From the NCBI GenBank assembly GCA_016935525.1, contig JAFGQU010000013.1:26523-90522 (forward strand): a stretch of 64,000 bases of DNA, written 5' to 3'. Shown here piece after piece: positions 9,819 through 30,490 of the stretch. Numbering within the stretch: position 1 is the first letter of the stretch; every line of letters starts with the position of its first letter. The stretch comes from Candidatus Omnitrophota bacterium. GTDB taxonomy: Bacteria > Omnitrophota > Gorgyraeia > Duberdicusellales > 4484-171. The notes under the pieces were generated by a model that was not told the origin of the DNA, did not search any database, and was given only the letters and a program-made list of their open reading frames with translations. The translations under genes were made by a program, and so were the position numbers.

Positions 9819-9820
9819 TC

Positions 9821-11116
9821 ATGATTAAAAGACGTATTTTTTCATTTTTTTATGACAGTATATTTTTTCTGGGAGTAATCGTATATCTGCCGGTTTATTT
9901 TAAACGGAAAAAGATCACCTGGTCGGCGTTTAAAGAGAAATGTGCGGTGTACCCGGAAAAAGCCAGATCGATCGCGCCGAAAAACAGGAAAGTCGTCTGG
10001 ATCCAGGTGGTAAGTGTGGGCGAGGTGACGTTGATCCGGTCGTTAGTCGAATATCTTAAAGCTCAGGGCGAAAGTGACGTGGTGATTTCGGTGACCACAT
10101 TGACCGGGCGTAAGGTCGCCGAGAAGATGTATCCGGGGAACCTGGTGGTCTATTTGCCTTTTGATATCAGTTTCCTGATCCGCCGGGCGATACGGTTCAT
10201 TAAACCGGCGGTATTCGTCGCGATCGAGACCGAGATCTGGCCGAACCTGTATCTTCAACTTAAAAGGGAAAATGTCCCGGTCATCATTTTAAACGGCCGG
10301 ATATCGGAAAGAGCTTTTGCGCAATACCGTAAAATAAAGTTTTTCATGAAAAAGATATTGAACCTGGCTGAGTGTATCGGAGTACAAAACCAGTTTTATA
10401 AAGAGCGGTTTCTCGAGTTAGGGGCGGACATCGAGAAAACCATTATTACCGGCAACCTTAAGTTCAGTAATTACTCTATCGATGAGAAAAAGTACGCGGC
10501 ATTTGTGGAAAAATATTATCCTTACCTGAAAAACGACGATTCGCTGCTTTTTTTAGCGGCAAGTACCCACGCGCCTGAGGAGACCTATGCGCTTGATTGT
10601 TATAAAACACTTATTGTCCGTTATCCGAATCTGCGGTTGATGGTAGTGCCCCGGCATATCGAACGGGTTGACGAAATAGAGCGTATTTTTGCCGCGGCCG
10701 GGTTCCGTACGCTTAAACTGAGCGAAGGATTTAAGGGCGGAACATCGTCACAGGATGTGTTTGTCGTCGACACCGTGGGTGATCTTCTGGCTTGTTATAG
10801 TATGGCTGATTTCTGTTTTGTGGGAGGGAGTCTTGCCGATTACGGCGGACATAATATTCTTGAACCGCTGTATTTCGCTAAACCGACTCTGTTCGGCCCG
10901 TGTATGAGTAATTTTAAAGAGATCGAACAGACGGTCCTTGATCACCAGGCGGGTATTCAGGTCGCACATAGCGAAGATCTCCGGGAGAGACTTGAAGAAT
11001 TGATACAGGATGTATCGTATCGCCAGAAACTTTCAGGTAACGCCCATGCGATTTTTACCGAAGGGCAGGAAACTTTAAAAAACAGTGTCGCATGTATTCG
11101 TCGTTGGTTGTATTAA
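9821..11116 (+). CDS. waaA: 3-deoxy-D-manno-octulosonic acid (Kdo) transferase
   Basis: GT30 signature WIQVVSVGEV near the N-terminus. 431 aa. Confidence 0.85.
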   Translation: MIKRRIFSFFYDSIFFLGVIVYLPVYFKRKKITWSAFKEKCAVYPEKARSIAPKNRKVVWIQVVSVGEVTLIRSLVEYLKAQGESDVVISVTTLTGRKVAEKMYPGNLVVYLPFDISFLIRRAIRFIKPAVFVAIETEIWPNLYLQLKRENVPVIILNGRISERAFAQYRKIKFFMKKILNLAECIGVQNQFYKERFLELGADIEKTIITGNLKFSNYSIDEKKYAAFVEKYYPYLKNDDSLLFLAASTHAPEETYALDCYKTLIVRYPNLRLMVVPRHIERVDEIERIFAAAGFRTLKLSEGFKGGTSSQDVFVVDTVGDLLACYSMADFCFVGGSLADYGGHNILEPLYFAKPTLFGPCMSNFKEIEQTVLDHQAGIQVAHSEDLRERLEELIQDVSYRQKLSGNAHAIFTEGQETLKNSVACIRRWLY

Positions 11117-12114
11117 AACAAAAATATTTAGGGCTTATCCAGGAGAAAAACCGTACTCCTCTCGGTCAGGCGTTATTTTTGGTATTGGTCGGGCTTTCCG
11201 GTATTTTCTGGATATTGGTCAAGGCGCGCGGCCTTTTTTATGAAAAAGAAGTGTGTAAGACGTATCAGTCCGAAAAGAGGATCGTCAGTATCGGGAACAT
11301 ATCCTGGGGCGGGACCGGTAAGACCAGTTTAACTCTGTATCTTTATAAAACACTGCAGGTCCCGGTAAGGGCGTGTATTATTACCAAAGGGTATGCTAAA
11401 GACGAATATGCTCTTATCCGGCGTAGTACAAAAAGTGTATACGATTCCCGTAACCGGATACGGATGATCCGGCGTCTCGAAAAAGAGTATGACCTTTTCC
11501 TTCTCGATGACGCGTTCCAATATCGCGGATTGGCTCGGGACCTCGATATTGTCCTTATCAATAAACAGGAGATCATTACCAGACCCCGGCTTATACCGGC
11601 CGGGCCGTTACGGGAACCGTTCAGCAGTCTTAAGCGTGCCGATATCGTCATCGTATCGTATTGCAGTAAAGAGGATTTAGCCGGTATTTCTCCTCGTATA
11701 GCGCGGATCAATAAAAATGCGGCGGTGTTCGCCGCCGATTATAAAGTGACCGGTCTATTGGACCATAACTTGAAGAGAGTACCTCAGGAATATTTGAAAG
11801 GTAAAAAACTGGGAGTACTTACCGCGATAGGATATCCTCAAGGATTTTTAGATAAAATACACGGGATCTCTTATGAGCCGTCCCGGGTATCGGTATATCC
11901 CGATCATTATGAGTTTAGCGGCGAACATCTGCGGGAAATCGAACGGGAATTTTTAAAAGACGGTATCGAAAATGTCTTGATCACGTATAAGGATTATTAT
12001 CATACCGATTTTTCCCGTAAAAGGCTTAACTATTTTATCGTGCAGGTGGAACTTATTATTCATGACGAGGAGAAGTTTTTAGAAGTCGTCCATAACCGTA
12101 TAAGATCTTTATAA
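11092..12114 (+). CDS. lpxK: tetraacyldisaccharide 4'-kinase
   Basis: P-loop IVSIGNISWGGTGKTS typical of LpxK. Overlaps the waaA 3' end by 25 nt. Confidence 0.85.
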   Translation: MYSSLVVLKQKYLGLIQEKNRTPLGQALFLVLVGLSGIFWILVKARGLFYEKEVCKTYQSEKRIVSIGNISWGGTGKTSLTLYLYKTLQVPVRACIITKGYAKDEYALIRRSTKSVYDSRNRIRMIRRLEKEYDLFLLDDAFQYRGLARDLDIVLINKQEIITRPRLIPAGPLREPFSSLKRADIVIVSYCSKEDLAGISPRIARINKNAAVFAADYKVTGLLDHNLKRVPQEYLKGKKLGVLTAIGYPQGFLDKIHGISYEPSRVSVYPDHYEFSGEHLREIEREFLKDGIENVLITYKDYYHTDFSRKRLNYFIVQVELIIHDEEKFLEVVHNRIRSL

Positions 12115-12119
12115 TCGCG

Positions 12120-13931
12120 ATGGCCAGGCTATTGTTGAGATTAATAAATGTATTTGTGCATCTTTTACCGCGTCCGGCGGCCCGGGCGTTAGGCGGGATG
12201 ATCGGCTTTTCCTTTTACCGTAACCGCCGCAGACGCCGGAACGCGTTTATCAATATCAAACAGGCGTTTCCCGAAAAAAGTAATCGTGAGCTTTTCTCGA
12301 TCATCCGCCGCAGTTTTATCTCTTTCGGCGTGAGTATTATCGAGACGTTCCTGGTCGAACAGATGAAAGAAGAAGTAACCCGGCAATGGTCGGAAAAAAT
12401 GACTCAAACCGGGGAGATATTCGTCGGGCTCCATCAGGGGAACTGGGAATCGTATCATGCGGATTTCGCGCGTACCGCGCCGCTGGCATTACTGGCAAAA
12501 GCGCAGAGATATTCAGTGCTTGACGATTATTTGAACGATCTGCGCAAGACCCATCTTGTTACGGTGTGTTTTTCCCTGAAAGAGGCGATCGCGGCTCTTA
12601 AAAAAAATATGTGGGTCGGGCTGGTCATCGATCACGGCGCGGAAAAAAACGCCCGGTTCGTCGATTTTTTCGGCCAGCTGGTGCCTACTCCGGGAGGAGC
12701 GGTGTCGCTCGCGAAAAAATTCGATAAACGGATTTTCCCGACGTTCGGGTATCGTAAGGGGAAAGAGCAGATATTCGTCATCGATGATCCCCTGGATTGC
12801 CGGGATCTTTCCGAAGAGGAAGCCTTACGTAAGATCAATGAAATGTATGAAGAGTTTTTAAGGGCGCATCCTTACGAGTATATGTGGTGGTTTAAACGGT
12901 TCAAACGGAAAAAGAACCGTAGTATCCTTATTTTGAGCGATGGTAAAGCCGGGCATCTTAAACAGTCTTTCGCGTTGAGTAAAAAAGTGGAGGAAGCCGG
13001 GTACCGGGTGGCTACCGAGACCGTAGAGGTAGCGTATCGTCACCGGTGGTCCCGGGCGGGCCTGGATATCGTTGCTTGTTTCAGTTCGCCCTGGGCAGTA
13101 GGTAGAACAAGAGCGTTGCGGTTCTTTCTTAAAAAGGAAATATGGGAGAAGTTAGAGAAGAGGTTTTACGATATTGTCATCTCTACCGGTTCAAGCGTGG
13201 CCGCGGCGAATGTGTTGTATGCCCGGTCACTGGGAGCAAAATCGTGCGTGATCTTAAGACCGAATGTTCCGTTAGTTAAATTCGATACAGCGCTCGTGCC
13301 CGAGCATGACGGGATAAAAGGGAACAATGTGATCACGACTAAAGGGGCGTTAGCCTATTTCGAACACTGGCAGGAACATGTGTTACGCGGGAAGGAGCAT
13401 TTCCGGTTTACCGAAGAGAAAAAGATCGCGGTATGTATCGGGGGGGCGCTCAATGACCACGGGCAATATCGTGAACGTCTCGGCATGTTCCTTGCGGCGT
13501 TAAAAGAATACGCTCTTAAACATCAGTACAGAATCGTCCTCACCACGTCGAGACGTACCGAAAGGCTGGTTGATGAGATCATCGAACGTGAACTTTCCTC
13601 ATTCCCCAATACTGAAGCGCTCCTCCTGGTAAGTCGCGAGAATCATCCGTTTGTAGTGCCGGCGTTTCTCGCGGTAAGTGAAATAGTCTGTGTGAGTGCC
13701 GAGAGCGTATCGATGATCTCCGAAAGCCTCTCCCAGGATAAAACAACGGCAGCGGTGTTTCTTGAAGACCTGAAATCGAAACCGCATCGGCGGTTTCTGG
13801 CATCACTGGAGAAAGAATATCTGAATTTTTTAAAGTATCCTTATGGCCAGTTTTCGTTCCGGCACCCGACGAGGTCGCTTAGGGCGCAGAACGAAGAACG
13901 GCTGGCGGAGGCGGTAACGCGGTTGTTATGA
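12120..13931 (+). CDS. fusion protein: LpxL/HtrB-family lipid A late acyltransferase (N-terminal) with ELM1/DUF1022-type domain (C-terminal)
   Basis: Residues 1-~265 look like lauroyl/myristoyl acyltransferases. From ~270 the sequence ILILSDGKAGHLKQSFAL... matches the bacterial ELM1 (mitochondrial-fission-ELM1-like) family start (KxxxLxDGKxGHxNQ). Confidence 0.65.
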   Translation: MARLLLRLINVFVHLLPRPAARALGGMIGFSFYRNRRRRRNAFINIKQAFPEKSNRELFSIIRRSFISFGVSIIETFLVEQMKEEVTRQWSEKMTQTGEIFVGLHQGNWESYHADFARTAPLALLAKAQRYSVLDDYLNDLRKTHLVTVCFSLKEAIAALKKNMWVGLVIDHGAEKNARFVDFFGQLVPTPGGAVSLAKKFDKRIFPTFGYRKGKEQIFVIDDPLDCRDLSEEEALRKINEMYEEFLRAHPYEYMWWFKRFKRKKNRSILILSDGKAGHLKQSFALSKKVEEAGYRVATETVEVAYRHRWSRAGLDIVACFSSPWAVGRTRALRFFLKKEIWEKLEKRFYDIVISTGSSVAAANVLYARSLGAKSCVILRPNVPLVKFDTALVPEHDGIKGNNVITTKGALAYFEHWQEHVLRGKEHFRFTEEKKIAVCIGGALNDHGQYRERLGMFLAALKEYALKHQYRIVLTTSRRTERLVDEIIERELSSFPNTEALLLVSRENHPFVVPAFLAVSEIVCVSAESVSMISESLSQDKTTAAVFLEDLKSKPHRRFLASLEKEYLNFLKYPYGQFSFRHPTRSLRAQNEERLAEAVTRLL

Positions 13932-15982
13932 GAGTGTTACAGATATTGCCTAAGATGAATATCGGAGGAGTGGAGAAAGGGGTGCTTGATTTTTCTTCTT
14001 ATTTTAAATCGGACATGGTCGTCGTCTCCGGCGGAGGAAGATGGGTGAAAAAGCTGGAAGAGGCCGGGGCGAAACATTATACCCTTTCGGTATACCGGAA
14101 ATCTCCGGTAAGTATTTTCTCAATCGGAAAATTGCGCCGGATAATCAAAGAAGAAAAGGTCGATATCGTCCATGCCCGTTCACGCGTGCCGGCGTGGATC
14201 GCTTTTTTCGCGACCCGGGGATTAGACGTCCCTTTTATGACTACCGCGCACGGAGCCTATTCGGTCCACAATTTCAGTGAAGTGATGGGGTGGGGTAAAT
14301 TCGTGATCTGTCCTTCGAAAAGTATCATCCGGCATATGATGGACAATTTCGGCGTACGTGAAAATAAAGTAAGGCTTGTCCCGCGGTGGGTAGATCTTGA
14401 TAAGTTCACTTTTAAACCGCAAACAGACCGGCGCCTGTGTAATTCGATCCTCAGTATCGGGCGGATCTCTCCTTCAAAAGGATACGAATACCTGATCGAA
14501 GCGTTCCGGAAGATCGCCCGGCATAATCCCTATTTGACCCTGACTATTGTCGGAGAAGCGGAACCTTCCAAAACGAAATATTTTCAATATTTAAAAAGTC
14601 TGGTCACACGATACGCTTTAAATTATCAGGTGCGTTTTCTGGGGTACCGGGAAGATGTCAATGAACTGCTCGATACCGCCTTCGCTTTGGTGATCCCTTC
14701 GGTCGTCGAAGAAGCGTTCGGCCGGGTGGTCGTTGAGGCGTTTGCCGCTGGCGTTCCGGTAGTCGCCACACGCATGGGAGCGTTGGAGGAGATCATCGAA
14801 CATCGTCAAGACGGGATCCTCGTGTTTCCCCGTAATGCCGACAGCCTCGCCGAAGGGCTTTTAGAGATCGTAAATAACCCGCCGCTGGCCCAGAAGCTCA
14901 TAGAGAATGCCCGCAGAAAAGTCGAAACCCTTTATTCTTTTTCCCATTGTGTGCGGGAGGTGGAAAAAGTATACCGGGAAGTGGTGCGTCATAAAAGAAT
15001 ACTGGTGATGAAGATATCTTCTTTAGGAGATGTGATCCTTTCGATCCCTTCTTTGAAAGCGATCAAAGAACAATGTCCCGACAGCGAACTTGTATTGCTT
15101 ACTCTCAAGAAGTACTCGTCTCTGTTCTACGGGTGTCCGTATGTCGATAGAGTTATCGGCCTTGACGCCGACTATAAACGGTTGCGTAACATCGTCCAGT
15201 TAAGCCGCTCTTTGAGAAGAGAGAGTTTCGATTACGTGATCGACCTGCAGAATAACCGCGCTTCCCACCTGATCGCTTTTTTGACGTTACCGCAGAAGTC
15301 GTTCGGATATTCCCGGAAATGGGGCAGATTATTGACGCATAAGGTTCCGGTATCGAAAAAGAGTGTTTCTCCTTTAGAATCTCAGGAAAAGATATTGAAC
15401 GCGGCCGGTATCGTTTTGACCGATAAAAGGCTCAGGTTATGGGATATGAACGTGTCTCAGCCTCAAAAATGGGAATTCTCCGATGAAGCCTGTATCGGTA
15501 TTAATATGTCGGCGTCGGTAAAGTGGCAGACTAAAAACTGGCCGTTGGCGCATACCAAGAAACTTATCGAATTGATCTTAAGAGAATTCCCTAAAATGAA
15601 GGTCGTATTGCTCGGTGACGAACATAGCGTAGCTGAATCTAAACTACTGGAGAAGATCGCGCCGCATTCGGTGATCAATCTGTGCGGAAAGACTACTCTG
15701 GGGGAACTGGTCGGTGTCCTTGCCCATGTAAAGATATTCATCACTCAGGATACAGCCCCTTTACACCTTGCCTGCGCGTTAGGGATCAAAGTGATCGCTC
15801 TTTTCGGCCCGACAGATCCGGATCGTCATACGGTAAAAAGCGATTATCTCCATCTGGTGGTGAGGAAAATACCCTGTTCATTCTGTTATAAACCGGTATG
15901 TAAAGATAACGTCTGTATGACCAAGATCACTCCTCAGGAAATAATGATGAGAATACAGAGTATATTAGGTAAATCAGGTTAA
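13928..15982 (+). CDS. bifunctional glycosyltransferase: GT4 (N-terminal) fused to GT9 LPS heptosyltransferase (C-terminal)
   Basis: N-terminal part has the GT4 E-x7-E region (EEAFGRVVVEAFAAGVPVV). From ~aa 355, ILVMKISSLGDVILSIPSLKAIKE... is the GT9/ADP-heptose heptosyltransferase N-terminus. Confidence 0.7.
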   Translation: MRVLQILPKMNIGGVEKGVLDFSSYFKSDMVVVSGGGRWVKKLEEAGAKHYTLSVYRKSPVSIFSIGKLRRIIKEEKVDIVHARSRVPAWIAFFATRGLDVPFMTTAHGAYSVHNFSEVMGWGKFVICPSKSIIRHMMDNFGVRENKVRLVPRWVDLDKFTFKPQTDRRLCNSILSIGRISPSKGYEYLIEAFRKIARHNPYLTLTIVGEAEPSKTKYFQYLKSLVTRYALNYQVRFLGYREDVNELLDTAFALVIPSVVEEAFGRVVVEAFAAGVPVVATRMGALEEIIEHRQDGILVFPRNADSLAEGLLEIVNNPPLAQKLIENARRKVETLYSFSHCVREVEKVYREVVRHKRILVMKISSLGDVILSIPSLKAIKEQCPDSELVLLTLKKYSSLFYGCPYVDRVIGLDADYKRLRNIVQLSRSLRRESFDYVIDLQNNRASHLIAFLTLPQKSFGYSRKWGRLLTHKVPVSKKSVSPLESQEKILNAAGIVLTDKRLRLWDMNVSQPQKWEFSDEACIGINMSASVKWQTKNWPLAHTKKLIELILREFPKMKVVLLGDEHSVAESKLLEKIAPHSVINLCGKTTLGELVGVLAHVKIFITQDTAPLHLACALGIKVIALFGPTDPDRHTVKSDYLHLVVRKIPCSFCYKPVCKDNVCMTKITPQEIMMRIQSILGKSG

Positions 15983-21302: not shown

Positions 21303-22043
21303 TTGCAACCTAATATAACTAGAAAAATGATGACTCCGGAAACATATGTATTGCTCGGTACGGCACTGACGATAGGGTTTATTCATACCCTGTTCGGTCC
21401 GGACCATTATCTTCCTTTTATCGTAATGTCTAAAGCGCGTTCCTGGAGCATGACGAAGACTGCAGTGGTTACGATCCTCTGCGGGATAGGTCATGTGGCA
21501 AGTTCCATCGTTCTGGGATTTGTCGGTATTGCTTTGGGAGTTGCGGTATTCCATTTAGAGAATATCGAATCGGTCCGCGGAGAAGTCGCGGCCTGGCTGT
21601 TTTTAGCGTTCGGATTGGCTTATTTTATCTGGGGTATTCGTCATGTCGTGCGTCGGCGGGGGCATCATCACCGGCATGTCCATTTTGACGGAGAAATCCA
21701 CGATCACCCGCATACTCATCTTAAAGAACACAGCCATGTGCATAGCGGACCGAAAGGCGTGAACCTGACTCCCTGGATCCTGTTCACTATTTTTGTGTTT
21801 GGGCCGTGTGAACCGTTGATCCCGATCTTGATGTATCCGGCGGCGAAAGGGAATATGTTTTTGGTGGCAGCGGTTTCTCTCGTGTTCGGAATCACTACGA
21901 TCACGACGATGCTGGCTATCGTGCTTGCCGTCTCCTACGGGCTCGCGAAACTGCCGATGGGGCGGTTAGAAAGATATTCTCACGCTCTGGCCGGACTCGC
22001 GATTTTTCTAAGCGGCGCGGCGATCAAATTGTTCGGCCTTTAA
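21303..22043 (+). CDS. Ni/Co transporter, RcnA/NicO-like with central His-rich loop
   Basis: Six predicted TM segments. HTLFGPDHY resembles the RcnA HGLEPGHSK motif. His-rich loop RRRGHHHRHVHFDGEIHDHPHTHLKEHSHVHSG. GPCEPLIP resembles RcnA GLIPCP. Confidence 0.6.
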   Translation: MQPNITRKMMTPETYVLLGTALTIGFIHTLFGPDHYLPFIVMSKARSWSMTKTAVVTILCGIGHVASSIVLGFVGIALGVAVFHLENIESVRGEVAAWLFLAFGLAYFIWGIRHVVRRRGHHHRHVHFDGEIHDHPHTHLKEHSHVHSGPKGVNLTPWILFTIFVFGPCEPLIPILMYPAAKGNMFLVAAVSLVFGITTITTMLAIVLAVSYGLAKLPMGRLERYSHALAGLAIFLSGAAIKLFGL

Positions 22044-22117
22044 TCGGATTGTCAAAGGACACACAATAAAAAATTATTTGACAAGGTTTTGCGAATATGT
22101 TATCTTTGTCAAGATAT

Positions 22118-22135
22118 ATGTGAACGTATTCACAA
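22118..22135. promoter_or_regulatory. Rex operator upstream of the hydrogenase operon
   Basis: ATGTGAACGTATTCACAA matches the Rex box consensus TTGTGAA-N4-TTCACAA in 17 of 18 positions. A TTGACA -35-like hexamer lies 25 nt upstream. Confidence 0.6.
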
Positions 22136-22153
22136 AATAGAGAGGATGATCCA

Positions 22154-23188
22154 ATGACTCAATACGTAATTCTTAATAAAACCGATCTTGACGAATTTAT
22201 TTCCCGTCTTGCTCAGATTAAAAAGACCGTCGCTCCCGTAAAACGGGGAGTGAAGAATTATGCGTTCGAAGAAGTCACCTCCGGAAAAAACGTCGCCGTA
22301 AAATATATACCTACTATTCTGCCTCCGAAAAAGTATTTCCTGCCTCAGACCGAAACGTTACAGCAGTATGATAAGAGTAAGAAGACCTGGAACGCGGTAA
22401 TGGAGTTTCAGGAAATGATCATATTCGGGGTCCATACCTGCGACCTTGCCGGTATCCAATGTCTTAATATGGCCTTTTCCGATAAACCCAAAGATATCAA
22501 TTATCTTGCCCGTAAGAACAGAATATTGATCATCGGCCTTGAATGTAATGATTATTGCGATGAATACGCGAGCTGTAAGGTGATGGATAACCATATGCCC
22601 AACGGAGGATATGACCTTTTCTTCACCGAACTCGATGACTTTTTTATGGTCCATATCAATACGCTCGAAGGTGAAGATTTGATCGAGAAGACCGGTTTGT
22701 TCAAAGAAGCGAAAGAAGAGCATAAGAAAGCCCTGAAAGCGATGAGGGAAGAGAAAAGGAAACGGTTTAAGGATGAAGTCAATGTGACCCATAACCAGTT
22801 AAAACCGCTATTCGATAAATCGTTCGAAGCGCCGGTGTGGCAGAGTCTCGAGGCGCGCTGTGTTTCCTGCGGAAATTGTACGAATGTCTGTCCTACCTGT
22901 TATTGTTTTGATATCGAAGATGAAATAGACCTGAATCTTACTACGGGCGTGAGAAAACGCCGGTGGGATTCCTGTCAAAACGAACCGTTTGCTCAAGTAG
23001 CCGGCGGTGAGAATTTCCGGGAAGCCCGCGGCGAACGCCAGCGTCACCGGTACCTGCGTAAATTCAAATATCCCGTAGATAAATACAGCCGGTATTTCTG
23101 TACCGGGTGCGGACGATGTTCCCGGACCTGTATGGCTAAGATTAATTTAAAAGAGACCATAAACGAGTTAGCCCAAGGAGCAAAATGA
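22154..23188 (+). CDS. [NiFe] hydrogenase (group 3b-like, sulfhydrogenase-type) beta subunit, 4Fe-4S protein
   Basis: C-terminal ferredoxin-like Cys clusters (CVSCGNCTNVCPTCYC, CTGCGRCSRTC). Position and architecture match HydB of the tetrameric sulfhydrogenase. Confidence 0.7.
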   Translation: MTQYVILNKTDLDEFISRLAQIKKTVAPVKRGVKNYAFEEVTSGKNVAVKYIPTILPPKKYFLPQTETLQQYDKSKKTWNAVMEFQEMIIFGVHTCDLAGIQCLNMAFSDKPKDINYLARKNRILIIGLECNDYCDEYASCKVMDNHMPNGGYDLFFTELDDFFMVHINTLEGEDLIEKTGLFKEAKEEHKKALKAMREEKRKRFKDEVNVTHNQLKPLFDKSFEAPVWQSLEARCVSCGNCTNVCPTCYCFDIEDEIDLNLTTGVRKRRWDSCQNEPFAQVAGGENFREARGERQRHRYLRKFKYPVDKYSRYFCTGCGRCSRTCMAKINLKETINELAQGAK

Positions 23189-24021
23189 AAAGAGTTACCT
23201 TAAAAGAATCGGCGTATAACGTAAAGACCGGGAAGATCCTTGTCGCAAAAATGCTTACCGCCCAGGAGAAATATTTTAAGATCGCTCTAGCCGGAGGTGA
23301 GAGCCTCGACCATGAGCCGGGACAGTTCGTGATGGTAGCGGTTCCGGGGGTGGGTGAGGCGCCGATTTCGGTCTCTTCTTCGCCTACGATCAGAGGGTAT
23401 TTTGAATTGGTCGTACGTGATGCCGGTAAACTGACTCATGTATTACATCAATTAGAAGCCGGCGATACGGTGGGTATCCGCGGACCGTTCGGCGTGGGAT
23501 TTCCTACCCAGATCTTAGAGGGAAACGACCTGGTGTTTGTTGCCGGAGGGTTGGGGATCGTTCCGTTACGGTCGCTGATCAATTTTGTGATTGATAACCG
23601 CCGTGATTTCGGAAAGGTGAGTATTCTCCTTGGGTGTAAGACTCCTCAAGATATGCTGTTTGGCGATGAGGTCGATCAATGGGAAAAACGGCTTGATGTG
23701 AATTTCAATTGTACCGTCGATAAAGCCGATCCCGATTGGAAAGGAAACGTCGGCTTGATCACTTCGTTGATTCCGGGGGTGACTCTTGATATCGAACGGA
23801 CGTTCGCTATCGTAGTCGGCCCGCCGATCATGTATAAATTCGTCATTGCCGAACTGCTTAAGAAGAACATCCCTGAACGGCAGATCTATCTTTCCCTGGA
23901 GAGGCACATGAAGTGCGGGGTTGGCAAGTGCGGCCATTGTCAGATCGGAGATGTGTATTGCTGTCAGGACGGGCCGGTATTTTCTTATGATAAGATAAAA
24001 AATAATATTGAGGCCTTATAA
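23185..24021 (+). CDS. hydrogenase gamma subunit, FAD/NAD(P)-binding oxidoreductase with 2Fe-2S (PyrK-like)
   Basis: Ferredoxin-reductase fold (GIRGPFGVGF, VAGGLGIVP) and C-terminal CGVGKCGHCQIGDVYCC cluster. Confidence 0.75.
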   Translation: MKRVTLKESAYNVKTGKILVAKMLTAQEKYFKIALAGGESLDHEPGQFVMVAVPGVGEAPISVSSSPTIRGYFELVVRDAGKLTHVLHQLEAGDTVGIRGPFGVGFPTQILEGNDLVFVAGGLGIVPLRSLINFVIDNRRDFGKVSILLGCKTPQDMLFGDEVDQWEKRLDVNFNCTVDKADPDWKGNVGLITSLIPGVTLDIERTFAIVVGPPIMYKFVIAELLKKNIPERQIYLSLERHMKCGVGKCGHCQIGDVYCCQDGPVFSYDKIKNNIEAL

Positions 24022-24023
24022 TC

Positions 24024-24791
24024 ATGAAAAAACCAAAAGTAGCTTTTTTTGATTTTTCTTGTTGTGAAGGATGTCAGTTGCAGGTTGCTAATTTCGGAGA
24101 AGGATTGTTAGATATCTTAAACCTTATTGAGGTCGTAGAGTTTCGTGAAGTAATGTCCGAAAAATGGGAAGGAGATTTTGATGTCGCGATAGTAGAGGGG
24201 AGCATTACGACCCCTCACGGCGTCGAACGGATAAAAAAGATCAGAGACCGCTCTAAAGTATTGATCGCCTACGGGTCCTGTGCGACTATCGGCGGCATCA
24301 ATGGGATGAAAAATAAATTCGATTTAGACGAGATCAAAGAGTATGTATATAAAGACGGCGCAAAATATTTCGAAACGATTCCGACTCGGCCGGTGCATCA
24401 GGTGGTAAAAGTCGATTACTTTGTGCACGGCTGCCCGGTATATCAGCCGGAATTCGTAAAGGTATTGAAATGCGCTTTACAGGGTATTCCGTATACGGTG
24501 CCGGATCATTCGGTCTGTGTGGAATGTAAACTGAACGAAAACGAGTGTATGTATGATAAAGGGCTTACTTGTTTAGGGCCGGTCACCCGGGCCGGATGTA
24601 ATTCCTGGTGTATTAATAACGGGAATATCTGTTACGGATGCCGGGGGATGGTGAGTAATCCTGCGAAAAACGGGCAGATGGATATCCTGGAGAAACATAA
24701 TATCCCGCTTGACTGGGTAGTGAATAAGATCGATATGTACAATAAACCGCGTGAATTAGAGGAGACCGAGACCAATGGCAAGAAACGTTAA
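24024..24791 (+). CDS. [NiFe] hydrogenase small (delta) subunit
   Basis: N-terminal FDFSCCEGCQL (NuoB/HycG-like proximal cluster motif) and additional C-terminal Cys clusters. Confidence 0.8.
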   Translation: MKKPKVAFFDFSCCEGCQLQVANFGEGLLDILNLIEVVEFREVMSEKWEGDFDVAIVEGSITTPHGVERIKKIRDRSKVLIAYGSCATIGGINGMKNKFDLDEIKEYVYKDGAKYFETIPTRPVHQVVKVDYFVHGCPVYQPEFVKVLKCALQGIPYTVPDHSVCVECKLNENECMYDKGLTCLGPVTRAGCNSWCINNGNICYGCRGMVSNPAKNGQMDILEKHNIPLDWVVNKIDMYNKPRELEETETNGKKR

Positions 24792-26100
24792 AGTCAATGT
24801 CGAGTATCTGACCCGGGTCGAAGGGCACGGGAATATCGTCGTAAATGTCAAAGAAGGTAAATTAGAGGAATGCCGTCTTGATATCGTCGAGTCGCCTCGT
24901 TTCTTCGAAGGTATGTTACGGGGACGTTCTATTTTCGAAGCCCAGCATATCACTTCCCGGATCTGCGGGATCTGCGCCTGCGGCCACACTCTGGCTTCGA
25001 TCCAGGCCGCCGAAGATGCTATCGGGTTTATACCGTCAGAGCAGACTACTATGTTGAGAAAATTGCTTCTTCATCAGGAGAATCTTGACAGCCATATCCT
25101 GCATATCTATCTGTTGGTCGCCCCGGACCTGCTGGGGGTAAAAAGTTTTGTTCCGCTTATCGATACTCATAATAAAGTCGTCCGGCGGGCTTTGCGGATG
25201 AAGAAGAGCTGTAACGATGTCTGCGATATCCTGGTCGGCCGTCATGTCCATCCGATCTCGGCTATCGTCGGAGGATTTACCAAATTACCGCGCGAAAAAG
25301 ACCTGGATGCGATGATGGATATTTTGGTCAGTATGCGCGCGGATATGGATGCGACCGTCGAGTTATGTAAAACGTTGAAGTTCCCTCAGTTTGAACGGGA
25401 AACCGAGTATGTTGGGTTAGTCAGCGATGATGATGAATACCCGATGCTCATCGGCGATGTCGGCTCGACTGACGGGAAACGTATGGATAAACATGAGTAT
25501 CGTAAGATCACCAACGAGTTCGTGATGCCGCATTCTTCGGCTAAACACGCCAAATGGAACCGTGAATCGTATATGGTGGGGGCGCTCGCCCGGGTGAATC
25601 TGAACTACAAGAAGCTTCATCCTAAAGCCAAGGCCGTCGCCGATTTCCTGGGGTTACATAAGATCTGTTACAACAGTTTTCTCAATACCGCAGCGCAATT
25701 GGTCGAATGTATCCATTCACTGGAAGAATCGATCGCGATCCTCGAATATTTTAAAAACCATGGCGTCAAGCATGAGGAAGCTCTGGTGGTAGGGTTGAAC
25801 GAAAAAAAGACTATTCCGGTAAAAGCCGGTAACGGTGTCGGCGCGGTGGAGGTGCCTCGCGGGCTCCTTTTCCATAACTATGAAGTTGACGATGACGGTA
25901 AGATCGTCAATGCCAATTGCATTATCCCTACTTCTCAAAACGTCAATAGTATCGAACATGATATGAAAAAACTGGTACCTCAGATCCTTGAGAAGTCCGA
26001 TGAAGAGATCACTCTGATGATGGAGATGCTGGTACGGGCTTATGATCCCTGTATATCGTGTTCGGCCCATTTCCTCGATGTCAAATTCGTTAACCGCTAG
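24775..26100 (+). CDS. [NiFe] hydrogenase large (alpha) subunit
   Basis: N-terminal RICGICACGHT (L1 Ni-binding CxxC) and C-terminal DPCISCSAH followed by a 9-aa extension (protease cleavage site). Confidence 0.9.
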   Translation: MARNVKVNVEYLTRVEGHGNIVVNVKEGKLEECRLDIVESPRFFEGMLRGRSIFEAQHITSRICGICACGHTLASIQAAEDAIGFIPSEQTTMLRKLLLHQENLDSHILHIYLLVAPDLLGVKSFVPLIDTHNKVVRRALRMKKSCNDVCDILVGRHVHPISAIVGGFTKLPREKDLDAMMDILVSMRADMDATVELCKTLKFPQFERETEYVGLVSDDDEYPMLIGDVGSTDGKRMDKHEYRKITNEFVMPHSSAKHAKWNRESYMVGALARVNLNYKKLHPKAKAVADFLGLHKICYNSFLNTAAQLVECIHSLEESIAILEYFKNHGVKHEEALVVGLNEKKTIPVKAGNGVGAVEVPRGLLFHNYEVDDDGKIVNANCIIPTSQNVNSIEHDMKKLVPQILEKSDEEITLMMEMLVRAYDPCISCSAHFLDVKFVNR

Positions 26101-26563
26101 TGTCCTTTCTGCGTTACGCCGGTATCCCGGCCACAATGTTTTTATTACCGTAGGGAACAGTTTACGGAGTGATGACGGTGTGGGGCCGTATATCTCATCG
26201 GTTCTGGAAAATCTCAAAGACCTGAGTGTGATCGCTGCCGGACAGAATCCCGAGAACGTGATCGATAAGGTGGCCGGGTTGCGTCCCGCCCGTATCCTTA
26301 TTATCGATGCGGCTGATTTCGGGAAGAACCCCGGTTATACCCAGATCGTGGACCGTGAACATATCCCCGAGACCAGTGTCAGTACGCATGCGATTTCATT
26401 GAAAGTCATCGCTCATCTTATAGAGGAAGATACCGGCGTGGCTGTGGAATTTCTGGGTATTCAGCCGCAATCGGTCGAGTTGAAAGAAGGGTTATCCCCG
26501 CAGGTAAAAGAGACTGCCGATGCGATTATCGCCGTAATCAGGAAGGAGTTTTCTCATGCATGA
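26078..26563 (+). CDS. hydrogenase maturation endopeptidase (HycI/HyaD family)
   Basis: FITVGNSLRSDDGVGPYI and IIDAADFG motifs. Start is uncertain: ATG 26078 or 26042, either overlapping the large-subunit gene. Confidence 0.7.
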   Translation: MSNSLTASVLSALRRYPGHNVFITVGNSLRSDDGVGPYISSVLENLKDLSVIAAGQNPENVIDKVAGLRPARILIIDAADFGKNPGYTQIVDREHIPETSVSTHAISLKVIAHLIEEDTGVAVEFLGIQPQSVELKEGLSPQVKETADAIIAVIRKEFSHA

Positions 26564-26798
26564 GATGCATTTGGTAAAAGACCTATTTGAAGATGTTTTA
26601 ACCCATGCTCGCAATAACCAGGCCGATAAGGTGACGAAAGTATACCTTAAAATGGGCGAGTTTACCGAGATCAATGAAGAGGTGCTCCGGTTCTTTTTCA
26701 AAGAAAAAGGGGCCCAGACAATATTAGAAGGTGCCGAATTAGTCATCGAAAAAAGCCCGGCCCGCGAATTACGGCTGGTATCGTTTGATTGCGAGTAA
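26556..26798 (+). CDS. hypA: HypA-like nickel-insertion protein, N-terminal fragment lacking the Zn-finger (possible pseudogene)
   Basis: Starts MHEMHL (HypA MHE Ni-binding N-terminus). Ends at ...ELVIEKSPARELRLVSFDCE*, exactly where the first CxxC of the Zn finger should begin. The stop codon abuts the family-2 repeat. Confidence 0.45.
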   Translation: MHEMHLVKDLFEDVLTHARNNQADKVTKVYLKMGEFTEINEEVLRFFFKEKGAQTILEGAELVIEKSPARELRLVSFDCE

Positions 26799-26893
26799 AG
26801 ATGCAGATGATCGCTGATTTTGGATTCACACAGATGATCGCTGATATTATATCTGTGGCAATCTGTGATTCTCTGAATCTGTGATCATCAGCG
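26799..26893. repeat. family-2 intergenic repeat cluster (CAGATGATCGCTGAT / ATCTGTGATCATCAG units), locus E1
   Basis: Two forward units (GCAGATGATCGCTGAT, CACAGATGATCGCTGAT) and three ATCTGTG units in the opposite orientation within 95 nt. Confidence 0.6.
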
Positions 26894-26912
26894 TGAAGGA
26901 GCGAAGCGACGA

Positions 26913-28211
26913 ATGTGTTATGCTATTCCCGGAAAAGTAAAACGGTTCCAAGATAAGTTTGTCATTGTCGATTATTTCGGCGAAGAACGCCGGGCGTATA
27001 ATGAGCTGGATGATCTCTCAATCGGAGACTATATTTACGCTCAGGGCGGTTACGCCATCCAAAAGATAGCATCGGATGAGGCCGAAAGTATATTGATGAC
27101 GTGGAAAGAGACTTTTTTTGAATTACAGGAAGTCGACCTCCAACTTTCCCGGATGGATCTTGAATCTAAAGACCTTTCGCTCCGAGTCGTCGGGCTGCTT
27201 GATAAAGTGAATCACGGGTTTTCTTTAAAAACCGACGAGTTGGAATACATCCTTGGCCTTGAAGATGAAAAAGAAAAAGAGTTTATATGTAAAAATGCGA
27301 ATTTTTTAAGGCAGAAATATCATAAGAACGCCTGTTGTGTGCATGGGATCATCGAGATATCCAACCGGTGCGCCCGGGATTGTCATTATTGCGGTATTTC
27401 TACGTTTAATAATAATCTTATCCGGTATCATATGGACGCGGATGAGATATTCGCGGTCGCTCAAAAAGCCGTCAAAGAATATAGTTTTAAAGCATTGGTC
27501 TTACAGAGCGGTGAAGAGTGCGGGTATAATACCCGTGAATTGGCGGGAGTGATCTCGAAAATCCGCCGTGAATTAGGCGCGTTGGTATTTATCAGTTTTG
27601 GCGAGATATCTCTTGAAGCTCTCGATCAGTATTATCAGGCCGGGGCCAGAGGGATATTGTTGCGGTTTGAGACGTCGAACGAAGGATTATATAACCGTCT
27701 TCATCCCGGAGGAGCATTGGCTAGGCGTATTGATTTGATCCGGGCGGCCGATAAGCGGGGCTATCTGGTCGCAACCGGCGGTCTCATCGGGTTGCCGGGG
27801 GCGACTGCGCATGATATCGTGAACGATGCTTTGTTAGCTAAAGAGCTGAACGCCGAGATGTATTCGTTCGGCCCGTTTATTCCATCGCACGATACGCCGC
27901 TTTCACAATCTTTTTCGGTCTCACCGGATTATATGCGGATGGTCATCGCCCTTATCCGGCTGGTCGATCCTGCGAAAGGGAAAATATTAGTGACTACGGC
28001 ATTTGAAACGTTAGACCCTTTAGCCAGGCGCCAGGGGCTGCTGTGCGGCGCGAATTCGGTTATGCTGAATGTGACTCCCCGCAGGTACCGTCAGCTTTAT
28101 TCGATTTATCCCGGACGGGCTCACCAGTCGCAGTCGATCCCTGAACAGATAGAAGAGACTATTGTATTACTCAAGTCTTTAGGCCGCGCGCCTACGGATC
28201 TGGGTATTTAA
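26913..28211 (+). CDS. hydE: fusion protein: HypC/HupF-like domain (N-terminal) joined to HydE-type radical-SAM maturase
   Basis: N-terminal MCYAIPGKV...VDYFGEERRAYNEL...GDYIYAQGGYAIQKI matches the HypC signature (MC-x-AIP, essential Cys2). From ~aa 95: EISNRCARDCHYCG (CxxxCxxC), YLVATGGLIGLPG, GANSVMLNVTPRRYRQLYSIYPGR match HydE. Confidence 0.7.
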   Translation: MCYAIPGKVKRFQDKFVIVDYFGEERRAYNELDDLSIGDYIYAQGGYAIQKIASDEAESILMTWKETFFELQEVDLQLSRMDLESKDLSLRVVGLLDKVNHGFSLKTDELEYILGLEDEKEKEFICKNANFLRQKYHKNACCVHGIIEISNRCARDCHYCGISTFNNNLIRYHMDADEIFAVAQKAVKEYSFKALVLQSGEECGYNTRELAGVISKIRRELGALVFISFGEISLEALDQYYQAGARGILLRFETSNEGLYNRLHPGGALARRIDLIRAADKRGYLVATGGLIGLPGATAHDIVNDALLAKELNAEMYSFGPFIPSHDTPLSQSFSVSPDYMRMVIALIRLVDPAKGKILVTTAFETLDPLARRQGLLCGANSVMLNVTPRRYRQLYSIYPGRAHQSQSIPEQIEETIVLLKSLGRAPTDLGI

Positions 28212-28236
28212 TCTAACCGGAACGATTCACAACATT

Positions 28237-28254
28237 TTGTGAATTTTATCACAA
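28237..28254. promoter_or_regulatory. Rex operator upstream of rex (autoregulation)
   Basis: TTGTGAATTTTATCACAA matches TTGTGAA-N4-TTCACAA in 17 of 18 positions. An adjacent TTCACAA-N4-TTGTGAA palindrome lies at 28225-28242. A TTGACA-16-TACACT promoter at 28259-28286 overlaps. Confidence 0.5.
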
Positions 28255-28322
28255 AATATTGACATCCCGGAAGAATATGGTACACTTGTGTTTCTTTAAA
28301 AATAGGCAGGGAGGCCACCACG

Positions 28323-28991
28323 ATGGTAAATAAGAATTATATTATACGTCTTTCTAATTATCGTCACGCTTTGAACCGGTTTAAAACGTTGGGCTTTATT
28401 AAGGTTTTTTCCGACAATCTGGCTGACGCCACCGGGGTGACTTCATCTCAGGTCCGTAAAGATTTTTCGATCTTCGGGATATCCGGGAACAAAAAGGGGG
28501 GGTATCAGGTCGAACTATTATTGGAACGATTAAATGATATCCTCGGTAAAGACCGGCTTCAACGCGTGATCATCGTGGGTGCCGGTAAAATAGGTAAGGC
28601 GCTTATCAATTATAAAGGATTTGAAAAAGACGGCATAAAAGTTGTCGCCGCTTTTGACGTGAATACGGCTGACCGGGTTCCGGTTGAGATCGATGTCCCG
28701 GTGTATCCTCTGGAGAAATTAAAAAATTACGTGAAGAAGAATAACATTGAAATCGGGGTTATCGCCGTACCGGATAACGCGGCTCAAGGGGTAATGGATC
28801 TTCTGGTAGAGTCGGGGATAAAAGGGGTATTGAATTTCGCGCCGATACGGTTACGTTCCGATACCGATACGATCATCAATAACGTGGATCTGCGTTCGGA
28901 ACTGGAAAATCTCGTTTATTTCGTGAACGCGACCGGGAAATCGAAAGCCAGAAATAATGATAAAGGTAAAAAGAATAGAGAAGAGCAATGA
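28323..28991 (+). CDS. rex: redox-sensing transcriptional repressor Rex
   Basis: Winged-helix N-terminus (VTSSQVRKDFSIFG) and Rossmann NADH-binding domain (IIVGAGKIGKAL). 222 aa. Confidence 0.85.
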   Translation: MVNKNYIIRLSNYRHALNRFKTLGFIKVFSDNLADATGVTSSQVRKDFSIFGISGNKKGGYQVELLLERLNDILGKDRLQRVIIVGAGKIGKALINYKGFEKDGIKVVAAFDVNTADRVPVEIDVPVYPLEKLKNYVKKNNIEIGVIAVPDNAAQGVMDLLVESGIKGVLNFAPIRLRSDTDTIINNVDLRSELENLVYFVNATGKSKARNNDKGKKNREEQ

Positions 28992-30490
28992 GTATCACGC
29001 ATAATAAAAAAAACCTGGAAATTTGGATAAAAAACCGTGTACGTCATGACCAGGTCGATAAGTACCTGCATGATCAGAAAGATTTTATCGATGAGGATAA
29101 GATCTTTACCGCGTTAGAAGCCGGGAAATCTCCGGATGCCGGGTATGTGAGAGATATTCTCAAGAAATCTCTGGCTATCGAAACGCTTAATCTTGATGAA
29201 ACGGCGGCCCTTCTCAACGTGACTGATCCGGACTTGTTAGCTGAGATGAGGCAGACCGCCGCAGCGGTGAAAAAGAAAGTGTATGATAACCGGATCGTCA
29301 CGTTCGCGCCTTTGTATCTTTCTAATTTCTGCGTGAACAATTGTCTTTACTGCGGGTTTCGCAGCGATAACATCCTCGCTCGGCGCCGGACGCTTTCAAT
29401 CGACGAGGTAAAGCGGGAAATCGAAGTCCTGGCCGGTACTATCGGGCATAAACGGCTGATCGTCGTGTACGGTGAACATCCTCAAAGTGATATCGATTAT
29501 ATGGTCGATACTATCGCTGCGATCTATGAGGTGAAGGTGAAGACCAAAAAAGGGGTCGGACAGATCCGCCGGGTGAACGTGAATGCCCCGCCGCTTTCGG
29601 TTGAATCGTTACGGTCTTTGAAGGAAGTCGGAATCGGGACCTACCAGGTGTTTCAGGAGACATACCACCACGATACCTACCGCCGCCTTCATCCTCAAGG
29701 TACGATAAAAGGCGATTACCGTTGGCGCCTTTATTGTATGCATCGGGCGTTTGAGGCGGGTATAGATGATGTGGGTATCGGCGTGTTATTCGGGTTGTAT
29801 GACTGGAAATTCGAAGTGCTGGGACTGGTGACTCACGCCCGTATCCTGGAAGCCCATTGCGGGGTAGGCCCGCATACGGTATCGTTTCCGCGGCTGGAAG
29901 AGGCTACGCATATCCCGTTTACGTTACAGAGTAAGTATCGGGTACGTGACGAAGATTTTAAGAAAATAGTGACGGTATTGCGCTTGGCGATCCCTTATAC
30001 CGGAATGATCCTTACCGCCCGGGAAACCGCGTCGATGCGCCGGGAGACTATTGGCTTGGGAGTGACCCAGATCGACGCGTCAACGCGTATCGGTATCGGA
30101 GCCTATAGCGACCGATCAGAAGAACAGGAAGGACGCCGTCAGCAGTTTTTGCTCGGCGATACCCGCAGTTTAGATGAGGTAATCCGTGAACTGGCCCGTG
30201 ACGGGTATATTACCTCGTTCTGTACCGCGGGATATCGTTGCGGACGGACCGGTGAGTGTATCATGGAATTGCTTAAAACCGGTAAAGAAGGACAGTTCTG
30301 TAAATTAAATGCCATCCTTACTTTTCGCGAATGGCTTGACGATTTCGCTTCAAAACCGACCCAGGATATTGGCGAAGAGATCATCAATAAAGAACTTGAT
30401 GAAGTGAAAAAAAACATACCCGGAATGTATCCTCATTTGGTCGAGTATTATGAGCGGGTAGCTCAAGGCGAACGCGACCTCTATTTTTAA
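28988..30490 (+). CDS. hydG: HydG-type radical-SAM protein (tyrosine-lyase family, ThiH/HydG-like)
   Basis: FAPLYLSNFCVNNCLYCGF radical-SAM motif typical of HydG/ThiH. At 500 aa it is HydG-sized, with a C-terminal Cys cluster (FCTAGYRCGRTGEC...FC). Confidence 0.65.
   Translation: MSITHNKKNLEIWIKNRVRHDQVDKYLHDQKDFIDEDKIFTALEAGKSPDAGYVRDILKKSLAIETLNLDETAALLNVTDPDLLAEMRQTAAAVKKKVYDNRIVTFAPLYLSNFCVNNCLYCGFRSDNILARRRTLSIDEVKREIEVLAGTIGHKRLIVVYGEHPQSDIDYMVDTIAAIYEVKVKTKKGVGQIRRVNVNAPPLSVESLRSLKEVGIGTYQVFQETYHHDTYRRLHPQGTIKGDYRWRLYCMHRAFEAGIDDVGIGVLFGLYDWKFEVLGLVTHARILEAHCGVGPHTVSFPRLEEATHIPFTLQSKYRVRDEDFKKIVTVLRLAIPYTGMILTARETASMRRETIGLGVTQIDASTRIGIGAYSDRSEEQEGRRQQFLLGDTRSLDEVIRELARDGYITSFCTAGYRCGRTGECIMELLKTGKEGQFCKLNAILTFREWLDDFASKPTQDIGEEIINKELDEVKKNIPGMYPHLVEYYERVAQGERDLYF

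Follow-up and report, generated by a model that had tools for sequence, protein, structure and literature searches.

A maturation module that combines [NiFe] and [FeFe] hydrogenase maturation proteins may lie in a 64,000-nucleotide stretch of the Candidatus Omnitrophota contig JAFGQU010000013.1 (the whole stretch analysed, hereafter the window). Directly behind a four-subunit [NiFe] hydrogenase, the window encodes a HycI-type endopeptidase, a short HypA (mini-HypA), a fusion of the chaperone HypC with a HydE-like radical-SAM enzyme, the repressor Rex and the tyrosine lyase HydG. We refer to the HypC::HydE-like fusion as CE and to the triple fusion HypC::HydE::HydG, found in relatives, as CEG. 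We propose that the genes from HycI to HydG serve the maturation of the adjacent [NiFe] hydrogenase, with a radical-SAM branch that would load an Fe-CO/CN unit onto the HypC domain. We give this reading a probability of roughly 55%. On the genomic evidence, it is somewhat favoured that CE, mini-HypA and probably HydG act in [NiFe] maturation. The genes concerned are as follows.

26042-26563, + strand: HycI-type maturation endopeptidase (TIGR00142, 123.5 bits; cut-off 119.1)
26556-26798, + strand: mini-HypA, 80 amino acids (aa) (PF01155, 60.4 bits, profile positions 1-70 of 112)
26913-28211, + strand: CE, 432 aa (PF01455 over residues 1-64; HydE model TIGR03956, 227.2 bits; cut-off 254.6)
28323-28991, + strand: Rex, NADH/NAD+-sensing repressor (NF003996, 240 bits; cut-off 138)
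28988-30490, + strand: HydG, 500 aa, radical-SAM tyrosine lyase family (TIGR03955, 460.4 bits; cut-off 312)

An earlier sequence-only reading of the window had named the endopeptidase, HypA, the HypC-HydE fusion, Rex and a HydG-like protein beside the hydrogenase, and all were located where it placed them or close by. It had started the endopeptidase at 26078; the open reading frame (ORF) begins at 26042, and 26078 is its internal Met13, which may nevertheless be the true start.

CE is a HypC domain joined to a HydE-like barrel

The HypC domain of CE occupies residues 1-75 (26913-27137) and is followed by a conserved linker helix and a HydE-like radical-SAM TIM barrel (residues ~96-432) with the motif CARDCHYCG (CX3CX2C). 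The protein is 100% identical to MBN2483380.1 from a Candidatus Omnitrophota metagenome-assembled genome (MAG). Its HypC domain scored 47.9 bits on PF01455 (cut-off 28.5) and 37.4 bits on TIGR00074 (cut-off 48), and the N-terminus MCYAIPG, in which Cys2 is the Fe ligand position, was invariant in 18 of 18 aligned fusions. In an AlphaFold2 model (pLDDT 88.7, pTM 0.89), an N-terminal beta-barrel is connected through the long linker helix to the TIM barrel. The ten best PDB matches of this model in Foldseek were all T. maritima HydE (target TM-score 0.90-0.96, root-mean-square deviation (rmsd) 1.5 Å), with BioB and PylB behind at 2.6-2.8 Å. The match to the HmdB model TIGR03957 was weak (55 bits; cut-off 321).

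Canonical HydE proteins from related loci scored 331 and 360 bits on TIGR03956, above the 254.6 cut-off. CE radical-SAM domains from different phyla are 46-72% identical to one another and 31-45% identical to canonical HydE. In a simple neighbour-joining identity tree, the CE and CEG domains of about ten lineages formed their own clade, and the Omnitrophota canonical HydE joined T. maritima HydE. The separate clade and the two identity ranges indicate that CE is a distinct paralogous family rather than a HydE that chanced to fuse.

HypC, HydE-like and HydG domains occur in one polypeptide

Single HypC::HydE::HydG proteins of 895-946 aa are encoded beside [NiFe] genes in Omnitrophota and Nitrospirota. 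The complete Omnitrophota genome CP070797.1 has a 921-aa triple-fusion ORF behind Mbh-type genes, HycI and mini-HypA. This ORF comprises HypC at residues 1-75, the HydE-like domain at 102-408 and, at 446-921, HydG with the variant motif described below. A homopolymer frameshift artefact was considered for this ORF and rejected: the other frames are closed, no start codon is available for a separate HydG that includes the conserved N-terminal region, and eleven further full-length fusions are present in independent NCBI, ENA and Logan assemblies. Three of the eleven are Omnitrophota-like and 66-70% identical to the CP070797.1 fusion. The remaining eight form a second group, 43-45% identical to it, two of which NCBI labels Nitrospirae; this group has another linker, and the three of its sequences that were read all carry the canonical CX2CX22C HydG motif. 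As the two groups differ in HydG subclass and linker, they point to at least two separate fusion events.

The Nitrospirota fusions (895-943 aa) lie directly 3' of a 3b hydrogenase, HycI and a small protein that binds cyclic nucleotide monophosphates (cNMP), one of them on a contig of 589 kb (CAZTAM010000001.1, assembly GCA_964611625.1). No [FeFe] gene was found within 10 kb on these contigs. The union of HypC, the HydE-like domain and HydG in one chain is strong evidence that the three belong to a shared pathway.

CE accompanies [NiFe] maturation genes across phyla

Gene content, domain architectures, conserved synteny, triple fusions and operator sites could be observed directly. A scan for CE, with one genome per species, returned 247 genomes from about nine phyla, and the combination of HypC with a radical-SAM domain recurs in more than 120 protein clusters (56-78% identity). 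The taxa are Omnitrophota, Atribacterota (Caldatribacterium), Brevinematales, Saganbacteria/WOR-1, WOR-3, Mcinerneyibacterium, Elusimicrobia, Auribacterota and Nitrospirota; complete genomes with CE are CP070797.1, CP070684.1 and NZ_CP189974.1. Synteny was analysed in the best 80 of the 247 loci, mostly Omnitrophota, with taxon labels from record titles. ORF calling and clustering were mechanical, and loci were re-checked by tblastn.

Across these loci, [NiFe] structural genes, HycI, mini-HypA and CE follow one another in a nearly constant order. The large subunit was found in 67 of the 80 loci, and in 53 of the 58 that include at least 5 kb of upstream DNA; HycI was present in 64, mini-HypA in 56 and Rex in 39 of the 80. 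The associated hydrogenase is either a four-subunit 3b enzyme or a group-4 Mbh/Mrp-type enzyme. These are two unrelated classes, and CE therefore tracks the maturation genes and not one enzyme class. The conserved synteny supports the conclusion that the CE module is no chance neighbour of the [NiFe] operon. The position of HydG was counted in the 65 loci with at least 2.5 kb of DNA downstream of CE:

HydG within 900 nucleotides (nt) 3' of CE, adjacent or with just rex between: 33 of 65 loci (19 variant, 14 canonical)
HydG elsewhere in the locus: 10 of 65 loci (7 behind an [FeFe] block)
No HydG in the fetched DNA: 22 of 65 loci (Atribacterota, Brevinematales, WOR-3, Mcinerneyibacterium and some Omnitrophota)

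None of the 33 loci with HydG right after CE has an [FeFe] gene within 10 kb.

The window and 88 related loci (1.5 Mb in all) were searched by tblastn with E. coli Hyp proteins. HypD, HypE and HypF gave no match in this DNA, HypB matched in 3 loci, HycI in 66, HypA in 32 and HypC in 72. All 72 HypC matches were the N-terminus of CE or CEG, with no free-standing HypC in the 1.5 Mb, so the fused HypC is the sole HypC near these hydrogenases. A search for HydF returned just highly conserved fragments, none on the contigs of interest, and carries no weight here. Within the window, the E. coli queries found no HypB, HypD, HypE or HypF, and tblastn with Omnitrophota seeds found no HydF, [FeFe] HydA, second HydE or HypB, CE and HydG being the sole matches. 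Together with a reading of the other ORFs, this bears out the earlier statement that the window contains no HypD, HypE, HypF, HydF or [FeFe] HydA.

Two loci had unusual arrangements. In the 1.275-Mb Omnitrophota genome CP070684.1 (L002/L006), mini-HypA, CE and a variant HydG stand at 9751-12807 with no hydrogenase gene within 10 kb. In L050, residues 3-300 of a 660-aa protein (12855-14837) are a small subunit of the group-1/NiFeSe type, to which a region matching VCBS repeats is fused; its gene lies directly 3' of CE and a variant HydG and 5' of a large subunit, HycI and HypB.

The window HydG belongs to a variant subclass

On the ThiH model TIGR02351, the 500-aa protein scored 253.9 bits, below the cut-off of 380. 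Its residues 19-500 align end to end with residues 8-480 of T. italicus HydG (4WCX; 455 bits), the N-terminal radical-SAM motif CVNNCLYCG (CX3CX2C) is present, and so is a C-terminal cluster domain of about 90 residues that ThiH lacks. The GPHT histidine that binds the dangler Fe is kept, GVGPHTVSFPRL aligning with GVGPHTISVPRL of 4WCX; we take this residue to be T. italicus His265. The protein, which the sequence-only reading had called HydG/ThiH-type, is thus HydG rather than ThiH, and it can be called a bona fide HydG of a variant subclass, with tyrosine lyase activity predicted from its family.

The C-terminal motif had been expected to be CX2CX22C. We found CX5CX19C instead (FCTAGYRCGRTG...FCKLNA); in this variant (FCTAGYRCGRTGEC...FCKLNA) the second Cys is replaced by Gly and a new Cys stands three residues on. 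The variant is conserved in about 25 species. Other relatives have a second, canonical class of HydG (FCAACYR...), 41-47% identical. The variant motif was considered as the mark of a HydG dedicated to [NiFe] enzymes and rejected: the Nitrospirota triple fusions carry the canonical CX2CX22C, and in locus L023 a variant HydG lies between HydF and HydE.

A true ThiH (TIGR02351, 477 bits) is encoded 3 kb from CE in the Brevinematales locus L075 (14356-15465, - strand). ThiH and HydG need to be separated by score and C-terminal domain.

Mini-HypA is a stable short form

The HypA of the window had been described as truncated. It covers positions 1-69 of a 116-position HypA profile and scored 56.5 bits on TIGR00100 (cut-off 88.1), corresponding to the N-terminal, Ni-binding half; the zinc domain with its two CxxC pairs is absent. 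The ORF stops at TAA, and the rest of HypA was found in no frame downstream of 26798. In 56 of 80 related species loci a protein of about 80 aa is encoded at this place, the N-terminal MHE is invariant in 57 homologues, and these homologues contain 0-2 Cys and no CxxC pairs. A pseudogene or decayed fragment was accordingly rejected, since the ~80-aa form is conserved, MHE is invariant and no frame holds a continuation. Judged by this conservation, mini-HypA is a stable short form and not a truncation.

In two Nitrospirota loci (L085, 9440-9895; L088, 9533-9988), HycI and the triple fusion flank a 151-aa protein with a cNMP-binding domain, which stands in the position of mini-HypA. A further feature separates mini-HypA from CE in the window:

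26799-26912, + strand: repeat-rich spacer, 114 nt (folding energy -39.9 kcal/mol, z = -2.8)

The spacer carries a pair of 18-nt direct repeats and a pair of 10-nt repeats together with nested inverted repeats, and folds into one long hairpin that ends just 5' of the CE ribosome-binding site. Most relatives have a mere few bases between mini-HypA and CE.

Rex operators precede the [NiFe] operon and rex-hydG

Two predicted Rex operators were found in the window:

22078-22135, + strand: promoter-like site (22078-22106), then Rex operator ATGTGAACGTATTCACAA (22118-22135), 19 nt 5' of the beta-subunit ATG
28237-28286, + strand: Rex operator TTGTGAATTTTATCACAA (28237-28254), abutting the promoter-like site (28259-28286) of the rex-hydG unit

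These are the only TTGTGAA-N4-TTCACAA boxes in the 64 kb at up to one mismatch (one mismatch each; 0 expected). The promoter-like site at 22078-22106 is the best one before the first hydrogenase gene. Among 16 Rex boxes in related loci, 11 lie just 5' of the 3b beta gene and three before rex. In the window the rex stop overlaps the hydG start (ATGA). Through the predicted operators, Rex would thus govern the NAD(P)-linked [NiFe] operon and co-regulate hydG. No promoter-like site was found before CE, which is therefore probably transcribed together with the hydrogenase genes. The sequence-only reading had offered, as an alternative, that Rex co-regulates an [FeFe] hydrogenase elsewhere in the genome. 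The Rex boxes precede the [NiFe] operon itself, so Rex is no pointer to a remote [FeFe] enzyme.

The hydrogenase operon and its surroundings

All genes from 21303 to 30490 are on the + strand. Those 5' of HycI are:

21303-22043, + strand: His-rich DsbD_2-family membrane protein (PF13386, 32.4 bits), directly 5' of the hydrogenase operon
22154-23188, + strand: [NiFe] beta subunit, 4Fe-4S, sulfhydrogenase ShyB/HydB-like (NF040829, 256 bits; PF17179)
23185-24021, + strand: [NiFe] gamma subunit, FAD/NAD(P)-binding, 2Fe-2S (NF006220, 277 bits; PF00175, PF10418, PF00970)
24024-24791, + strand: [NiFe] small subunit, delta (NF040831, 170 bits; PF01058)
24775-26100, + strand: [NiFe] large subunit, alpha (NF040832, 276 bits; PF00374)

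The translated large subunit has the motifs RICGICACGH (RxCGxCxxxH) and DPCISCSAH (DPCxxCxxH) and a 9-residue C-terminal extension. The best NCBIfam matches of the four subunits were sulfhydrogenase Shy/Hyd models, all below their equivalog cut-offs, and the enzyme (22154-26100) is best described as a group-3b-like [NiFe] hydrogenase by these matches. The DsbD_2-family protein has a His-rich loop, RRRGHHHRHVHFDGEIHDHPHTHLKEHSHVH, which is very rich in histidine (HHHRHVHFDGEIHDHPHTHLKEHSHVH), and in 10 related loci a member of its family (cluster cl23) adjoins hydrogenase genes or CE. A Ni2+ permease that substitutes for the missing HypB is a possible role.

The other ORFs of the window, read by eye, are lipopolysaccharide-core, pur, fab, leu and housekeeping genes. 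Extending the window sequence yielded 6 kb more downstream (TruA, MreBCD, PBP2, RodA) and nothing upstream. Nearly all genes in the 64 kb are on the + strand, GC skew is positive in 32 of 32 two-kb bins, and cumulative skew climbs steadily; from this strand bias and uniform skew, the whole window appears to lie on the leading strand of one replichore.

A possible pathway to the [NiFe] site

In [FeFe] maturation, HydG makes an [Fe(CN)(CO)2(cysteinate)] unit, which HydE binds and strips of its cysteine scaffold by radical attack on sulfur (PMC8855341). In [NiFe] maturation, Fe(CN)2CO is bound to Cys2 of HypC, which delivers it into the large subunit (PMC12134894). We infer the chemical steps that would connect the two, and equally whether the module replaces or supplements HypDEF. 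HydG would cleave tyrosine and yield the mononuclear Fe-(CO)2(CN)-cysteinate unit, which the HydE-like barrel of CE would take over and free of its cysteine scaffold by radical chemistry. Instead of dimerising for HydF, the Fe-carbonyl/cyanide fragment would be caught by the invariant Cys2 of the fused HypC domain, which would then dock on the apo large subunit and hand the fragment over. Nickel would enter with the help of mini-HypA, and HycI would trim the 9-residue extension at the C-terminus. As for the second cyanide of Fe(CN)2(CO), surplus CN- from a second HydG turnover could be exchanged for one CO; alternatively HypEF, if encoded elsewhere in the genome, could give the cyanide and the module just the CO. 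Through Rex, both rex-hydG and the hydrogenase operon, to which CE apparently belongs, would respond to the NADH/NAD+ ratio.

In its strictest form, the proposal is that Fe(CN)2(CO) is made without HypD, HypE and HypF, with all diatomic ligands derived from tyrosine via HydG and a dedicated HydE paralogue loading the fused HypC. This form we regard as tentative, at something under one chance in three.

Points against the pathway and alternative explanations

Several points weigh against a radical-SAM supply to the [NiFe] site. The ligand sets are mismatched, the HydG synthon being (CO)2(CN) and the [NiFe] site (CO)(CN)2. The HypC histidine (E. coli His51, T. kodakarensis His45) is replaced in CE by an invariant Gln44 (GDYIYAQGG versus GDWVIVHTG). 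HypDEF, HydF and an [FeFe] hydrogenase may be encoded in the host genome outside the 64 kb, and a lack of HypDEF near the loci does not establish their lack from the genomes; in many bacteria these genes lie apart from the structural genes. Mini-HypA, too, may not be exclusive to [NiFe] loci, because in L091 (2147-2398; JGI 3300029288 / NCBI Omnitrophota contig) an 83-aa mini-HypA lies between HydF and NuoE/NuoF-like HydC/HydB genes, with no [NiFe] gene on the 6.4-kb contig.

The remaining points on this side also favour the strongest alternative, namely that two systems lie side by side. HydG and Rex would then serve an [FeFe] hydrogenase, HydE and HydF encoded elsewhere, CE would be this lineage's HypC with an extra radical-SAM domain of some other role, and HypDEF elsewhere would make Fe(CN)2CO. 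We consider this a serious possibility, at something under one chance in three. Nine related loci encode, 3' of rex and in this order, a histidine kinase, an [FeFe] hydrogenase of the HydABC type (PF02906) and a response regulator. Canonical HydG stands behind this [FeFe] block in seven of the nine, those whose fetched DNA reaches that far, with a TM1266-like regulator 5' of it in L011 and L043. Three loci extend beyond HydG, and canonical HydE follows it there, in full in L007 and cut short by the end of the locus in L029 and L043. Just 5' of the 3b operon and CE, locus L023 has in a row a fragment of HydF, a HydG of the window type and a canonical HydE that scores 360 bits. From the HydABC-block loci and L023, HydG appears to be at least sometimes an ordinary [FeFe] maturase, and it may serve both hydrogenase types or just [FeFe]. 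No HydG was found near CE in 22 of the 65 loci, and maturase genes of the hyd type are often scattered in genomes. Atribacteria nearly always have both hydrogenase types (PMC11227167). At least one Omnitrophota genome in the tables of Seymour et al. (PMC10066038, supplement 6), genome 231, combines hypACDEF with a group-1 [NiFe] enzyme; genome 58 of the same tables has an [FeFe] enzyme and K03150.

Other evidence speaks against two adjacent systems. Triple fusions occur in two phyla and with different HydG subclasses, immediately after [NiFe] genes and HycI and away from any [FeFe] gene; the 33 loci in which HydG follows CE directly are free of [FeFe] genes within 10 kb; and Rex boxes lie before the [NiFe] operon. 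In addition, the Ace Lake Omnitrophota MAGs are reported to have one hydrogenase type each, [NiFe] alone in seven genera and often 3b or 4g (PMC8542988); the supplement of that study contains no maturation terms. Loci with an [FeFe] hydrogenase carry canonical HydE besides CE, and this retention fits a model in which one HydG feeds two HydE-type enzymes, HydE for [FeFe] and CE for [NiFe]. The suggestion in the sequence-only reading that radical-SAM chemistry supplies the [NiFe] ligands is thus strengthened by synteny beyond chance and by the triple fusions, and weakened by the [FeFe] HydABC loci, L023 and the hypACDEF genome.

A second alternative is that the whole module is a variant [FeFe] maturation system, in which the HypC-like domain replaces HydF as carrier and the proximity to [NiFe] genes reflects a shared hydrogenase island. 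HydE and HydG are, to our knowledge, otherwise known solely from [FeFe] maturation, the mini-HypA, CE and HydG trio stands alone and away from a hydrogenase in CP070684.1, and mini-HypA is found beside HydF and HydBC in L091. CE is nevertheless tied to HycI and [NiFe] genes in most loci, rex and the histidine kinase separate it from the [FeFe] genes where both are present, and a canonical HydE is present beside it where an [FeFe] hydrogenase occurs. The HypC, HypA and HycI families, moreover, are specific to [NiFe] enzymes (PMC12134894). We judge this explanation improbable.

That the 500-aa protein is a ThiH in a fortuitous cluster is refuted by the family scores, ThiH being the nearest non-HydG family (TIGR02351, 254 bits) yet below its cut-off of 380 with HydG at 460 above 312, by the ~90-residue C-terminal cluster domain and end-to-end alignment with 4WCX, and by the 477 bits that the true ThiH of L075 reaches on the ThiH model.

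Comparison with known maturation systems

A 2025 review of the [NiFe] cofactor states that six Hyp proteins are required and names the anaerobic CO source as the main open question, with no mention of HydG (PMC12134894). In full-text literature searches, neither a HypC-HydE(-HydG) fusion nor a role for HydG in [NiFe] maturation was found described. Each part is a member of a known family, but their architecture and context are new. HypC joined to a HydE-like domain and HydG is a testable candidate for the anaerobic CO source, at least in these phyla. In the strictest form of the proposal, the module would constitute a second, radical-SAM route to the [NiFe] cofactor, would connect how [NiFe] and [FeFe] maturation evolved and would give a concrete answer to the problem of the anaerobic CO source. 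It would also be the first functional link between two hydrogenase maturation systems that are held to be unrelated. How the HydG product passes to HydE is an open question in the [FeFe] field (PMC8855341), on which the natural HydE::HydG fusions have a bearing as well, and the three-gene module of mini-HypA, CE and HydG might ease heterologous production of [NiFe] hydrogenases.

With the HypABCDEF pathway and its endopeptidase, the module shares HycI, a HypA-like protein with MHE, a HypC domain with the essential Cys2 and the usual place behind the structural genes. In contrast to that pathway, HypC is here always fused to a radical-SAM enzyme and has Gln in place of His, HypA lacks the zinc domain, and HypD, HypE and HypF were not found in the window or within 10 kb of the 88 related loci. 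With HydE/HydF/HydG maturation of [FeFe] enzymes it shares a HydG that is a true family member and a CE barrel with the HydE fold (rmsd 1.5 Å to T. maritima HydE) and CX3CX2C; the transfer of an Fe(CO)2(CN)(Cys) unit from HydG to HydE is established logic there (PMC8855341). It differs by the lack of HydF and [FeFe] HydA from the window and from most related loci, by the fusion of the HydE-like domain to HypC, by the placement of the module inside [NiFe] operons and by the HydG motif CX5CX19C.

HypX, the aerobic CO source that uses N10-formyl-tetrahydrofolate, is an accessory diatomic-ligand route to HypC-bound iron limited to some lineages, as the module would be, but its family and chemistry are unrelated, and HypX is oxic whereas organisms with CE are anaerobes. 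HmdB/Hcg of [Fe]-hydrogenase (FeGP cofactor) offers another HydE/BioB-like radical-SAM enzyme for an Fe-carbonyl cofactor outside [FeFe] maturation, although CE matches HmdB weakly and no hmd or hcg genes are present here.

Among the proteins examined, P0145 and P0146 are bacterial 771-793 aa proteins that combine the GTPase, dimer and tetramer domains of HydF with a radical-SAM domain (HydE::HydF-type), an arrangement that we otherwise know from algae. These proteins and the algal HydEF fusions are a precedent for the fusion of consecutive maturases of one pathway. There, HydE is joined to the [FeFe] scaffold HydF, whereas here a HydE-like domain and HydG are joined to the [NiFe] chaperone HypC.

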